A stretch of 64,000 bases of DNA. Source: Escherichia coli (lineage in GTDB: Bacteria; Pseudomonadota; Gammaproteobacteria; Enterobacterales; Enterobacteriaceae). The stretch lies in NCBI RefSeq assembly GCF_003790525.1, contig NZ_CP033635.1. One strand, written 5' to 3'. Below are positions 28,901-32,861 of this stretch, piece by piece; position 1 is the stretch's first letter; the number at the start of each line of letters is the position of its first letter. Position numbers: made by a program.

Positions 28901-31900
28901 ATGGTGAAGGAACAGCTTGTCGTCAGCCGTAACCGTCGTCGCCGCTACAGCTCATATTGCGGAGAAATCGGACCGGATCCGGATAACCTTATCGCCAGAG
29001 ATTTTAAGGAGGACCAACCTAATCAGAAATGGCTGACAGATATAACGGAGTTCCAGCTTCCTGCAGGAAAAGTCTGGCTGTCACAGGTGGTGGACTGCTT
29101 CGATGGAAAAGTTGTGAGCTGGTCTCTCAGTACACGCCCCGACGCAGAACTGGTTAACGCTATGCTGGATAACGCTGTCAAAACGTTAAATGCTGGCGAA
29201 CGACCGATGATACACAGTGGCAGAGGTGGGCATTATCGCTGGCCAGGCTGGCTGGAAAGAGTTAATGCCGCAGGTCTTATTCACTCAATGTCCCGTAAGG
29301 ATGATGCCGCATGCGAAGGCTTTTTCGGCAGACTGAAAACGGAAATGTATTATGGGCGTAAATGGTCGGGCATCATGCCGGAAAAGTTCATGCAGCATGT
29401 GGATGCTTACATCAGAGGGTATAACGAGCGGCGTATAAAATTATCGCTGGGTGAAGACAGCCCTGAAATGTACCGCCAACAATGTAGGCTGGAATAATAA
29501 AGAAGTCCAGGAAATCGTCCGCATCCCCAAAACGGCCAATAATCTTGGCGTTGACATAGCACGACGATCTCTTGAAACTACCGCGCCGATAGTTATTCCC
29601 CAATCAAGCAACAGTCCCCTGATTTGACAAACGGTCACATTAACAATATGCTGCCTTGCCCGGTGCAAAGCGTAGATATCCTGTTGTTCCGAGCTTTTTG
29701 GAGGCATGAACAGCATTGTCGGTTACATCAGAAGCACTGCGATGGCCTGTGCATCATTACCGTCATTTTTTGCCCACAGACAAAGGGAGTTACATACTGT
29801 GGGTTGAGGACCTTTACGTTATGCCCCAGTTTTTTAAATTCACTCTGCCAGTAAAATTCCCATGTGGATGCCCTACATCAATTAGGAAGGCCGGAATATT
29901 CGCCACTATTTGGAGTAATTCTTTTCGGCCAATACGTTTTGAATAAACCGGATTACCGACCTAATTTAACCCGCAGAGCTGAAAGATATTTTTATCCAGA
30001 TCAATACCCAGGAATACGATATTCATTGTGATTCCCCTGCTGAGTGAGTGCATTTCGTACAGTTAACCGCAAAAGGAGGGGGTACTCCATTCCATGAACT
30101 GGAAGCCCAGATACGATGCATAGAGTCACCTGATATTAAAAAGAACGAGGATCTTGAGGACGAGAACCGACGTCCAAAACAGATGCTTGCCGACCTTAGC
30201 CTAGAGAACCGGCATTGAAAGACATTATCGAAAAAAGCTTTAAAACCAGCCTGTAAGCGTGAGCTTGTTACTCATCAGATAACGACATTTGGACTCAGTG
30301 TCCATCAGGCCTGCCGGAGTCTGAACCAGAGCAGAACGGTTTCCCATTACCGTCCGGATACCACGTGGTACGACCCCGTTATTGTGGTGGTGCAGGCAGT
30401 GGACGAGCGATATCCTCGATACGGTTTTTCAAAACTTTTTCAGGTTCTGAGGCAGCAGGTTCGCGGCAAATCGCAGTTATCCGGTCATGCTGCGCATAGA
30501 TAATGGTTCGGAATTTATCTCTCTAACGCTGGCTGAATGGGCTGATATACACGCAGTAAAACGGGAGTTTATCCAGCCGGGTAAGCTGACGTAGAACGCT
30601 TTTATTGGGCGTTTTAACAGGACACACCGTACAGAAATACTCGATTTTTATCTGTTCAGAACGCTGAATGAAGTTCTAGAAATTACGGAGAAATGGTTAT
30701 CAGAATATAGCTATGAACGCACACATGAATCACTGAACAATAAGACGCTGGAAGAATATCGACGACACCATTATTTGACCAAGATATAAAAATGCATGGA
30801 ATTAAAACGGGGCATATTTATATATGAATAACACAACTATATCGCTAAGGTAAAGGTGTATCCAAACGGAGAATACAGCACTAACAGCATATATTCATCC
30901 AAATTAATAAAATATGACCGAGAACATAGAATATTAAACATTTTTAAATTATGCTTTTCTCGCTAACGCGTCTATATCCGAAAAATACTCTTTAATTCCC
31001 TCTAGGATAGATTCTGCCACTTGTTGTTGGAATCTTGCCGTTTTCAGTTTGCGCTCTTCCTCAACGTTACTGATAAACGCCGTTTCGACCAGAATGGAGG
31101 GAATATCAGGTGCTTTCAGCACGGCAAACCCGGCCTGTTCAACCTGATTTTTATGCAGCTTGTTGATTTTACCGAGCTTATTCAGCACCGCTTTACCCAA
31201 CTTCAGGCTGTCGGCAATGGTCAGAGACTGCACCATATCGAACATGGTGTGGTCGACATAGCGGTCACCGCTTTTGCTCACGCCGCCAATCAAGTCCGAG
31301 GCGTTCTGGGTTTGTGCCAGATATTTTGCCGCAGTACTTGTCGCGCCTTTGGTCGAAAGCGCAAACACGGAAGAACCGCTCGGCTGGCGACTGGTAAAGG
31401 CATCAGCATGGATAGAAACAAAAAGGTCAGCACGTTGTTTCTGTGCTTTTGCTACACGCACTTGCAACGGAATGAAGATGTCTTCATTGCGCGTCATGTA
31501 CACCTTCATATTACCCTCTTTTTCGATCAGAGAGCGCAGACGGCGAGCTATTTGCAATACCACGTCTTTTTCGCGTGTTTTGTATTTCCCCACCGCACCG
31601 GGGTCTTCGCCACCGTGGCCGGGGTCAAGCATAATGACAATCGGACGATCACGCCCTGCTTTACCCGGTTGTGGACCACTTTGTGCTGGCGGCACCTGCT
31701 TTTCGAGGTCGCCTTTGTTGTAATCCTCCAGCAGCGCCAGCAGCGGGTCCTGCATATCCTGTGCATTGGCCGGATAGAGGTCCATCACCAGACGCTCTTT
31801 AAACCCGGCGACCGGCGCAAGGGCAAACAGCTGCGGTTTTACGTTTTGCTTTAATTCAAAAACCATGCGTACGGTTTGCGGGTCAAATTGCCCGACGCGC

Positions 31901-32861
31901 GCCGACTTGATGAACGGGTCGTCTGCACGAATTTGTGCCGCCATCCCCTTGAGTACCGAGTTCAGGTTTACATCTTCGATATCCACCACCACACGTTCAG
32001 GGTTACTTAACGCGAACTGCTTATATTGCAGCTGACGATTTGATTCTACCGTCACGCGGGTGTAGCTGGACGCAGGCCAGACGCGTACCGCCACGACCTG
32101 GCTGACCGCAGCCAGGCTGACCTGACTTACGCTCAATAGCCACATGGCGCCCGCACCTTGCAGTAAACGACGACGGCTGATTACATAATTATAGTTAGAT
32201 ACCAGCATACCTTACCTAAGCAATACAATGTTCAATAATATAACTATGCTCTAATAAATTTTTACAGGTGTTTAAAGAAATAATCACACGTATTCTTATC
32301 TTTGCAATCTAATCTAATTTTAAATAAAGGTCAATATCTTATTTTTTGATATAAGTTTTCTTAAATACCACGATATAAAAACATTTTATTTAAGTGATTT
32401 CTTTTAGTTTGTTTTTCAAATAAAAGGGATGTACTCATGACATTTTAAATATGTACATCATGCACAGCAATATTATAGTTTTTTATCTGATTACTGAGAA
32501 GTATCTATCAATAGAACAATGTTTTTTAGTTTGTATAGGGAAGAGTTGGGTTGAATTGAGAATAAAAACTAGAGATTACTGGGGAAGGAACTTTTCAAAT
32601 CCGAAATCATGGTCTACAATGAAAAAATGATGTTCTAAGTATTCCTATCATGAATAAGAATGCACCATATTTTGAATAGTATAATTTTATATTTATATAT
32701 CCTTTACTGTACGATGATGATATTTTATACCTGAATGACAAGGGTGTTATTTTATACCACATATAAATTTGCAGAAAATATAAAATGAGAAGCACTGAAT
32801 AATCGCGGCTTCTGGCTATGATTTAAATGTTTTTACATTTTTTCAAAGTAAATTCAGTTCA

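Follow-up and report, generated by a model that had tools for sequence, protein, structure and literature searches.

An accessory second amiC gene of putative mosaic structure on a pheV genomic island of Escherichia coli

The locus and its predicted product

An intact open reading frame with an ATG start is found on the minus strand of the window (the 64-kb stretch of E. coli DNA analysed here as a whole) and encodes a 419-residue AmiC with a Tat signal (Table 1). A plausible Shine-Dalgarno sequence, AGGTAAGG, lies directly 5' of the start codon. The gene is part of a unique segment of ~2.09 kb (~30825-32913), which is bounded on both sides by remnants of IS3-family elements. Debris of IS3, IS110, IS21, and IS66 surrounds it, and nearly all neighbouring CDSs are frameshifted or truncated IS genes. 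The chromosomal amiC is flanked by argA at one end and by the metZWV tRNAs and mltA at the opposite end. As the initial annotation claimed, these neighbours are missing here. The argA-amiC-metZWV synteny is not found at the island copy, and homology to chromosomal amiC is confined to 32185-30957, stopping within the ORF on both sides. There are no tRNA genes in the 64-kb window, which stops short of pheV. Because homology ends inside the ORF, no tRNA is present in the window, and the neighbours are IS remnants, the gene is classed from its sequence as a paralogous or xenologous copy and not as an orthologue.

Table 1. Features of the island amiC segment and its borders (coordinates of the window)
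Feature	Coordinates	Strand	Evidence
Island-borne amiC paralogue, 419 aa	30949..32208	-	ORF, NCBIfam, Pfam, PDB 4BIN match, RefSeq WP_000961389.1
Divergent 5' head, gene nt 1-27, codons 1-9	32182..32208	-	Alignment; maximum chi-square
Core, apparently of E. coli lineage, gene nt 28-1172	31037..32181	-	Identity, dN/dS, alignment
Divergent 3' tail, gene nt 1173-1260, codons 392-419 + stop	30949..31036	-	Identity, GC3, maximum chi-square
AT-rich leader 5' of island amiC, unique, 705 bp	32209..32913	.	Composition; found only in 57 island-bearing genomes
AT-rich 3' flank, unique, stop codon to IS3 remnant	30825..30948	.	IS3 homology ends ~30820-30824
IS3-family transposase remnant, integrase core only, N-terminus missing; downstream border	30097..30824	+	RefSeq annotation of identical SCU-115 locus; plasmid IS3 matches
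isrN-type sRNA match inside downstream IS3 remnant	30242-30384	-	Rfam
IS3-family transposase internal fragment; upstream border	32914..33056	-	Annotation; plasmid IS homology starting at 32914
IS110-family (ISEc21-like) transposase pseudogene adjoining upstream border	33073..34149	-	ORF survey, IS homology, annotation

Both flanks of the gene are AT-rich. The GC content is 26.4% in 32209-32830, and the stretch 32185-32784 (25.3%) is the lowest-GC 600 bp of the window, whose overall GC content is 48.8%. The longest stop-free run in the leader is 71 codons, and its sole ORFs encode 59 and 62 aa. An AT-rich region of about 600 bp without ORFs had been annotated upstream, ending at 32830. Its composition and the lack of any ORF longer than 62 aa were confirmed, but not its extent: the leader reaches 32913, and IS3 homology resumes at 32914. 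The AT-rich sequence followed by IS remnants that had been described downstream is also there, with 29.8% GC in 30761-30948 and IS3 homology up to ~30820-30824.

The protein is identical to housekeeping AmiC at 400 of 419 residues. The 19 differing positions consist of 17 substitutions and a 2-codon insertion, and they cluster at residues 2-9 and 392-419, in agreement with the earlier description of a 419-aa Tat-signal amidase with an AmiC-like core and divergent N- and C-termini. Only three substitutions (K59Q, S201P, and F335L in K-12 numbering) are found in the core. The NCBIfam model of N-acetylmuramoyl-L-alanine amidase AmiC (NF038267) matches with 792.6 bits (cut-off 700), residues 4-410 aligning to profile positions 2-407 of 407, and PDB 4BIN matches at E=8e-241. 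Scores for the AmiA and AmiB families are 277.7 (cut-off 400) and 216.7 (cut-off 532), respectively. The N-terminal AMIN domain (Pfam PF11741), of the type that targets the septum and peptidoglycan, covers residues 40-144 (E=3.4e-21) and differs from that of AmiC at K59Q alone; the Amidase_3 domain (PF01520) covers residues 192-406 (E=1.1e-51).

By sequence comparison, the Tat motif S-R-R-R-L-L occupies residues 11-16. The signal peptide matches AmiC in its h-region and at the SLA|A site and is altered only in the n-region. H196, E211, H265, and D267 (K-12 numbering), which from the 4BIN literature we take to be the zinc-domain ligands of AmiC, are all kept in identical local sequence. Q299 is also kept, and its region (the autoinhibitory blocking helix) and the next helix, the one for interaction with activators (LytM/NlpD), are the same as in E. 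coli AmiC residue for residue. Note that the divergent tail takes the place of the last ~16 residues of Amidase_3, which could impair folding.

The second copy and the pheV island

Among 5,426 complete E. coli genomes, the island amiC is found in 57 (~1%), and all 57 carriers hold exactly two amiC places, the argA-linked gene being kept. Chromosomal amiC copies found in the same genomes number 5,369. SMS-3-5 has an intact resident amiC next to argA, with the island copy ~190 kb away in the genomic island GI-pheV. An island of this kind is recognised by its insertion at the pheV tRNA beside a P4-type integrase, and both features are seen in this strain: tRNA-Phe is at 3,197,159-3,197,234, a tyrosine recombinase is at 3,197,411-3,198,595, and the island amiC lies ~30 kb inside. 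These positions agree with the published extent of GI-pheV in SMS-3-5, 3,197,159-3,289,098 (PMC11537424, Table 1). The SMS-3-5-type GI-pheV, a horizontally acquired island, carries the gene as an accessory second amiC. The initial annotation had allowed that it might instead be the only amiC of its genome, lying in ordinary chromosomal sequence. Neither half of this holds, since each carrier has a separate chromosomal amiC and the flank sequences occur in those 57 genomes only.

The ORF is full length in 57 of 57 genomes, and the exact island protein is encoded on at least 1,000 contigs, in all cases with no frameshift or stop. No other genomic context was found for this exact protein; the island is the same throughout. 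The island copies are at least 99.9% identical to each other. About half of the 57 carrier genomes are from poultry isolates, and others are from human isolates.

IS elements on both sides of the segment and a core of the E. coli lineage (see below) are what would be left if IS elements had simply duplicated or captured the amiC region of the host's chromosome. Such an event is contradicted by the absence of both the argA-side and the metZWV-side flanks and of any tRNA in the window, as well as by the non-coli ends of the gene. Sequence identity contradicts it too, the best value for island amiC against any of the 5,369 chromosomal copies being 95.0% and the core showing 95.5% identity to the resident amiC of a strain that bears the island. 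This origin is very improbable. Imprecise excision of an island beside amiC at the metV tRNA hotspot was considered as well and rejected on the lack of a tRNA and of flank homology and on the location of the island at pheV.

Mosaic structure and putative origin of the gene

The island amiC can be divided into three parts (Table 1). The head is AT-rich, has the 2-codon insertion, and encodes a new signal-peptide n-region before the conserved SRRRLL. The core, which holds every known functional residue, has 96.5% identity to its closest E. coli allele (dN 0.0034, dS 0.152, dN/dS ~0.02). For the tail, dN is 0.20, dS is 1.55, and GC3 is 0.31, and its protein has 10 substitutions relative to AmiC in the last 29 residues. 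Among codons for identical amino acids, synonymous changes are found in 9 of 19 in the tail and 37 of 377 in the core (Fisher test on exact counts, p=7e-5), and synonymous divergence in the tail is ~5 to 10 times that of the core. The breakpoints are sharp at both ends, with chi2 values of 91.7 and 103.6, where permutations reached at most ~31 (p<0.001). The head breakpoint is at or before nt ~26 (maximum chi-square 103.6, permutation maximum 30.7). No further heterogeneity was detected inside the core (p=0.14).

The tail DNA is 59-71% identical to every comparator, while Escherichia, Citrobacter, and Salmonella are 78-99% identical among themselves. At the protein level, the Proteus tail matches that of E. 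coli at 22 of 29 residues, and the island tail matches that of E. coli at 19 of 29. The divergence of the head (~9 codons) and tail (~29 codons) exceeds that of the Salmonella, Citrobacter, and Proteus tails. With 50-59% identity to AmiA and AmiB, the island tail is of neither type. The core, on the other hand, is 96.5/95.5% identical to two E. coli alleles (themselves 96.7% identical to each other), 93.7% to Escherichia sp. MOD1-EC7003, 92.0% to E. whittamii, 89.3% to E. albertii, and 84% to Citrobacter. E. whittamii, E. albertii, and MOD1-EC7003 are all farther from the core than E. coli, and a non-coli Escherichia donor was rejected on this basis. A closer core donor may exist beyond these alleles, for example in E. 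fergusonii, E. marmotae, E. ruysiae, or clade I.

Searches for the source of the ends and flanks returned ordinary AmiC or the same island. Nothing significant was found by blastn of both flanks against the amiC loci (with 3-kb flanks) of 80 species and Proteus, and a distant-mode search of the leader against plasmids and phages gave no match. For the tail, a tblastn query with the last 54 residues found only ordinary AmiC among plasmid records. An exhaustive phmmer search of 1.84 billion protein representatives found a best tail of 19/29, of the ordinary enterobacterial type. A word-indexed search with a 42-aa query gave short fragments only, and a metagenome scan with a fully degenerate tail-peptide pattern gave two matches, both from the same island.

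The best reading of these sequence comparisons is that the gene is a mosaic, with a middle of the E. coli lineage and with both ends and the AT-rich flanks foreign. This goes beyond the initial annotation, which had proposed either an acquired copy or a captured chromosomal segment. Each alternative would fit a part of the locus: the ~1.14 kb tract internal to the ORF is of the Escherichia chromosomal type, and the ends and flanks appear foreign. The starting point may have been an amiC-like gene of distant relationship that lay in foreign DNA rich in AT. By homologous recombination or gene conversion, a chromosomal amiC allele of Escherichia, with a branching point close to the root of E. coli diversity, would have replaced the interior of that gene (~nt 28-1172). 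Of the foreign DNA, the first ~9 and last ~29 codons would remain, together with both flanks. Later IS-mediated deletions would have trimmed the surroundings to the 2.09-kb remnant. The foreign-recipient part of this model draws on divergence statistics from ~38 codons only. The exchange may have run in either direction, with either partner as the donor.

Another way to explain the ends is a single Escherichia-like donor and no recombination, with the ends diverging faster through relaxed constraint or positive selection and AT-biased mutation. The tail does share short strings with E. coli specifically (GGAATTAAAG and GCGAGAA), the island-specific changes in the core are also AT-biased (11 GC>AT vs 5 AT>GC), and no donor of the ends was found in the searches made. 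However, selection at the protein level cannot yield the synonymous excess of the tail (dS 1.55 vs 0.15 in the core, p=7e-5), and its raw divergence of 29% is above the neutral expectation from core dS. The shift is abrupt at both ends, and homology is gone beyond the ORF, although an orthologous locus of 96% identity should keep alignable flanks. A single origin is therefore distinctly unlikely.

Regulation, predicted function, and comparison with known systems

No upstream homology to the native locus was found for the island amiC, either by alignment or among the amiC loci of 80 species. In Salmonella, native amiA and amiC are under Cpx control (PMC6231687). The native promoter (CpxR-controlled in Salmonella) would have been lost from the island copy and 705 bp of 26% GC DNA put in its place, and because of this replacement its expression is likely governed differently from that of the native gene. 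With 25-26% GC against 48.8% for the window, the leader has the AT content of xenogeneic DNA silenced by H-NS, and A/T tracts of at least 5 bases occur in it at 14 per kb compared with 3.8 per kb. The leader contains no site within 2 mismatches of the 10-bp high-affinity H-NS motif TCGATAAATT, a match count that is uninformative on H-NS binding. Promoter-like hexamers are modestly enriched (11 vs 6.3 +/- 2.6 expected; e.g., 32500-32472 and 32334-32306), and no Rfam match to an RNA element was found in the leader. The leader is plausibly a candidate H-NS target, with silencing and conditional relief.

The island copy is probably a functional amiC whose promoter has been exchanged. The protein would be exported by Tat, move to the septum, and, going by PMC10268282, be activated there by NlpD or ActS. 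Like the housekeeping enzyme, it would then cut stem peptides from the peptidoglycan of the septum. The result would be an extra or alternatively regulated AmiC dosage and not a new enzymatic activity. The initial annotation suggested that daughter-cell separation, release of peptidoglycan fragments, or beta-lactam tolerance could be affected.

Comparison of substitutions shows that the branch of the island copy itself has been under purifying selection. With 13 synonymous and 3 nonsynonymous changes specific to this branch (P=4e-6 against neutrality), purifying selection appears to have acted through most of its separate history. Past selection on the island copy is no proof of its present use. 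The opposite possibility is a silent, unexpressed relic of a larger foreign fragment that hitch-hikes with the island and is intact only through the recent spread of the latter. Hosts that already own a full amiC, an absent native promoter, an extremely AT-rich leader of a type usually silenced, and neighbours that are nearly all broken IS genes are all consistent with a relic. Because the island copies are so close to identical (at least 99.9%), there has been little time for decay, and their intactness says little on current selection. Against a relic are the excess of synonymous changes on the island branch, the 57 genomes and at least 1,000 contigs with no frameshift or stop, and the Shine-Dalgarno sequence before the ATG. 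Such a relic is unlikely, though it keeps some weight. The whole reading, i.e., a second amiC on GI-pheV with a recombinant origin, AmiC-like action, and altered regulation, is judged fairly probable.

More speculative, and improbable, is a specialised amidase that is expressed conditionally, when freed from H-NS silencing in the host, and whose ends alter activator dependence, export, or stability to the benefit of carrier lineages. If this were true, the C-terminal helix or the signal n-region would alter activator dependence, export efficiency, or stability. Tolerance of envelope stress or antimicrobial peptides might be improved, or the release of peptidoglycan fragments changed, and the gene might contribute to the success of poultry-associated and extraintestinal lineages with this GI-pheV variant. 

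In E. coli, division amidases are regarded as part of the fixed core genome, and the island AmiC is an accessory variant in some lineages. In Salmonella, Tat-exported AmiA and AmiC are Cpx-induced and aid fitness in the inflamed gut (PMC6231687), so that envelope-stress tolerance could plausibly be affected by an extra, differently controlled copy. The practical side concerns genotyping: because automatic annotation calls both copies amiC, pan-genome and mutant studies in carrier strains can confuse them, and a single amiC knockout there may not be null. The mosaic, if correctly read, shows cleanly how, in nature, a chromosomal housekeeping gene and a foreign homologue carried by a mobile island can undergo gene conversion. 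Taken for what it is, the island amiC is a real but modest curiosity with a predicted function.

The closest known system is the housekeeping AmiC of E. coli (b2817; PDB 4BIN). This septal N-acetylmuramoyl-L-alanine amidase is exported by Tat, has an AMIN domain, and is activated by NlpD. The island copy has the same SRRRLL, cleavage region, AMIN and Amidase_3 domains, zinc ligands, and blocking-helix glutamine. Unlike b2817, it is located in GI-pheV, and only ~1% of complete genomes have it, in each case alongside the native gene. Its n-region is new, 10 of its last 29 residues are substituted, and 705 bp of 26% GC DNA lie upstream of it. AmiA and AmiB have the Amidase_3 catalytic fold and the regulatory helices in common with it (PMC10268282), but the island protein is far below both family cut-offs and its tail is neither AmiA- nor AmiB-like.

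The segment lies within an SMS-3-5-type island with the order pheV, P4-type integrase, and cargo including iha, as in GI-pheV (PMC11537424). That study found the integrase of the SMS-3-5 GI-pheV to be the most divergent and does not mention the amidase. No paper describing an island-borne amiC was found in the literature searched, and the amiC cargo of GI-pheV appears to be undescribed. Horizontally acquired peptidoglycan-remodelling enzymes, such as those of Salmonella (PMC7933661), are likewise cell-wall enzymes on acquired DNA beside a core set. The Salmonella cases are distinct enzymes or clearly diverged paralogues, whereas the core of the island AmiC is nearly identical to that of the resident enzyme and only its ends and, probably, its regulation differ.

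Genomic setting and distribution of the second amiC

With the island amiC gene alone as the query, matches of at least 99% are found in 57 of 5,426 complete E. coli genomes, and each of the 57 has exactly two amiC places. The other matching genomes have one amiC place, with at most 95.0% identity to island amiC. Fifty-six complete E. coli genomes match the segment 30000-33800 on the chromosome with 100% identity. The initial annotation had proposed a horizontally acquired second copy or a captured chromosomal segment, and had held that a sole amiC between ordinary chromosomal flanks would speak against this. 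Given the two amiC places and the foreign setting in GI-pheV, a genomic island at the pheV tRNA gene, the proposal stands: island amiC is a genuine extra copy on acquired DNA. The host field names chickens or chicken meat for about half of these 57 genomes and humans for about 16. The exact protein is present on at least 1,000 contigs of public assemblies, and all ten genomic contexts shown for it (29 contigs read) are the same island.

In E. coli SMS-3-5, the island starts at tRNA-Phe (pheV) with an adjoining tyrosine recombinase. An intact resident amiC lies beside argA, about 190 kb from the island copy; the ordinary order is argA, amiC, metZWV tRNAs, mltA. The resident genes of E. coli RM7190 (locus L002, 2993-4246) and SMS-3-5 (locus L084, 31389-32642) encode one protein (WP_000016907.1), but their DNA is 3.3% apart, a large distance for a core gene of E. 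coli. Between its amiC and metZWV tRNAs, SMS-3-5 further carries a ~5.5-kb block of PTS and sugar-phosphate genes that is missing in RM7190. Judging by this divergence and insertion, the surroundings of native amiC seem to be a hotspot of recombination or insertion.

The window matches the chromosome of strain SCU-115 at 99.9% except for two added IS insertions (see the table), so IS activity in the island is evidently ongoing. In SCU-115, where RefSeq names the island gene amiC (WP_000961389.1), its neighbours are frameshifted IS3, IS110, IS21, and IS66 genes, and iha, an ibrAB-like pair, sodC, sitA, and a PhoX gene are found farther out. Transferred to the window, the intact cargo comprises a PhoX-family phosphatase, the siderophore receptor/adhesin iha, a pair of IbrB-like and PAPS-reductase (IbrA-like) genes, the superoxide dismutase sodC, and the start of sitABCD. 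These genes flank the IS graveyard around island amiC, and pseudogenised integrating-conjugative-element genes (TIGR03756/03757) are found near them.

Features of island amiC and its surroundings (window coordinates unless residues are stated)
Feature	Location	Strand	Remark
Island amiC ORF	30949..32208	-	ATG start, 419 aa
AMIN domain	residues 40-144		island AmiC
Amidase_3 domain	residues 192-406		island AmiC
Promoter-like hexamers	32500-32472 and 32334-32306		leader
isrN Rfam match	30242-30384	-	full-length
Extra IS segment 1	~18671-19927	+	IS3-family transposase ORF 18873-19919; absent from SCU-115
Extra IS segment 2	~39555-42253	-	IS66: TnpC 39585-41156, accessory TnpA 41523-42200; absent from SCU-115
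Intact island cargo	10542-12521, 20237-22324, 43096-44951, 52159-52683, from 56045		transferred from SCU-115 annotation

Mosaic structure of the gene

The position and strand of the ORF agree with the initial annotation, which also rightly described a near-identical core with differing termini, an AT-rich upstream stretch without ORFs, and AT-rich DNA followed by IS remnants downstream. In alignment, 400 of 419 residues are the same as in typical chromosomal AmiC. Apart from K59Q, S201P, and F335L (K-12 numbering), the mismatches all lie towards the two ends, at residues 2-9, where two codons are inserted, and at 392-419. The GC content of 32209-32830 is 26.4%. Nowhere in the 64-kb window are 600 bp richer in AT than at 32185-32784 (25.3% GC; 48.8% overall), where the longest stop-free run is 71 codons and the only ORFs have 59 and 62 aa. 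On the 3' side, 30761-30948 (29.8% GC) is followed by an IS3-family remnant. Homology to IS3 elements stops at about 30820-30824 on the left and restarts at 32914 on the right, leaving a unique segment of 2.09 kb (about 30825-32913). The AT-rich leader is confined to the same 57 of 5,426 complete genomes, even at low stringency.

The remnant just 3' of the gene also contains the match to isrN (138 bits; gathering score 44), an Hfq-binding sRNA first described in Salmonella islands. Apparently, then, the isrN family is carried along by an IS3-type element.

DNA homology to chromosomal amiC extends from 32185 to 30957 only (94.9% over 1,229 nt), ending at the ORF edges. That IS elements simply duplicated the host's own amiC is hardly credible, since the copies diverge by 4-5% and chromosomal flanks are lacking. 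Codons 11-390 have dN 0.0034 and dS 0.152, and codons 391-418 have dN 0.20 and dS 1.55. Among codons for the same amino acid, synonymous changes are found in 9/19 of the tail (codons 392-419) vs 37/377 of the core (nt 28-1172; Fisher p=7e-5), a rise in synonymous divergence that selection at the protein level, whether relaxed or positive, cannot produce. Maximum chi-square places breakpoints at nt ~1172 (chi2 91.7) and at or before nt ~26 (chi2 103.6), against a permutation maximum of ~31; there is no further heterogeneity within the core (p=0.14). A gene of single origin with fast-evolving ends is therefore improbable, as both the synonymous heterogeneity and the sharp breakpoints argue against it.

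The core is closest to E. coli (RM7190 96.5%, SMS-3-5 resident allele 95.5%), followed by Escherichia sp. MOD1-EC7003 (93.7%), E. whittamii (92.0%), E. albertii (89.3%), Citrobacter (84%), and Salmonella (83%). Since the two E. coli alleles are themselves only 96.7% identical, the core is, judged from these identities, an E. coli-lineage allele that split off close to the root of the E. coli diversity sampled. Among the 5,426 complete E. coli genomes, no closer chromosomal allele was found. The tail DNA is 59-71% identical to every comparator over 87 nt; the same 87 nt are 78-99% identical among Escherichia, Citrobacter, and Salmonella. Relative to E. coli, the tail of Proteus mirabilis, from another family, shares 22/29 residues and the island tail 19/29. 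With the Proteus tail, the island tail has 17/29 residues in common, no more than with E. coli. GC3 is 0.59 in the core and 0.31 in the tail, the latter in line with the AT-rich flanks.

The simplest account of this mosaic is recombination between two amiC homologues. A distant homologue embedded in AT-rich DNA would have provided the ends and flanks, and an Escherichia chromosomal amiC the interior 1.14 kb. Both exchange points lie within conserved stretches, one around the Tat motif and the other at ...EEERKLKTA... A distant partner for the flanks and tail was not found in amiC loci of 80 species, Proteus, plasmids, phages, a metagenome scan, or 1.84 billion protein representatives. Single residues of the island type (R after the first A, E/Q/N in IL-x-GI, YFS, LARK) do turn up in more distant amidases, which fits a donor outside Enterobacteriaceae but proves nothing.

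Selection and predicted product

Five chromosomal Escherichia alleles served to polarise the core changes. The branch of the island copy itself has 13 synonymous and 3 nonsynonymous changes (P=4e-6 vs a neutral expectation of 75% nonsynonymous), indicating purifying selection during its separate history. A less likely reading makes the gene a silent relic in an IS graveyard: the selection may lie in the past, and current constraint does not show among copies of the island as similar as these. The 16 changes are about 2.5 times those of the E. coli alleles compared (6-7), and within 31037-32181 there are 11 GC>AT vs 5 AT>GC. Weaker codon selection or a past stay in an AT-rich host could explain the AT bias and long branch.

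The protein scores 792.6 bits with the NCBIfam AmiC model (cut-off 700) and aligns over residues 36-418 to 4BIN, the crystal structure of E. coli AmiC. The SRRRLL motif, signal-peptide core, and cleavage site are kept. H196, E211, H265, and D267, the zinc ligands of the 4BIN literature, and Q299, its blocking-helix residue, are present in identical local sequence. By every sequence criterion the protein belongs to the AmiC family, yet its locus is not the orthologous one. AmiC-family proteins are exported by Tat and localised to the septum by AMIN, and their blocking-helix autoinhibition is lifted by the LytM activator NlpD and also by ActS (PMC10268282). By analogy, island AmiC is predicted to share Tat export, septal targeting, and NlpD/ActS-relieved autoinhibition.

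Leader and comparison with known systems

The leader is dense in A/T tracts, a composition of the kind typically bound by H-NS, and is a candidate H-NS target. A Shine-Dalgarno-like AGGTAAGG precedes the ATG. CpxRA induces native amiA and amiC in Salmonella, where both genes are important to fitness in the inflamed gut (PMC6231687). About 55-65 nt 5' of the island start codon, TTAAACACCTGTAAA (32261-32275, gene sense, minus strand) is one base off the CpxR box consensus GTAAA-N5-GTAAA; in 26% GC DNA this is probably chance.

Island amiC is best classed as an accessory, recombinant AmiC paralogue. It is a mildly interesting, probable case of chromosome-island gene conversion and opens no long-standing question. 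For amiC genetics in lineages carrying it, the extra copy also calls for practical caution. No description of an island-borne amiC was found in the literature searched; RefSeq already annotates the gene as amiC. The GI-pheV island type is already known: SMS-3-5 (phylogroup F, ST354) has a 91.9-kb GI-pheV with an unusually divergent integrase (PMC11537424). This is the same island, and no amidase is mentioned in that paper. Compared with native AmiC, the island protein differs in the signal-peptide n-region, the last ~16 residues of the catalytic domain, and the C-terminal extension. All DNA upstream of native amiC is replaced at the island copy by 705 bp of 26% GC DNA.
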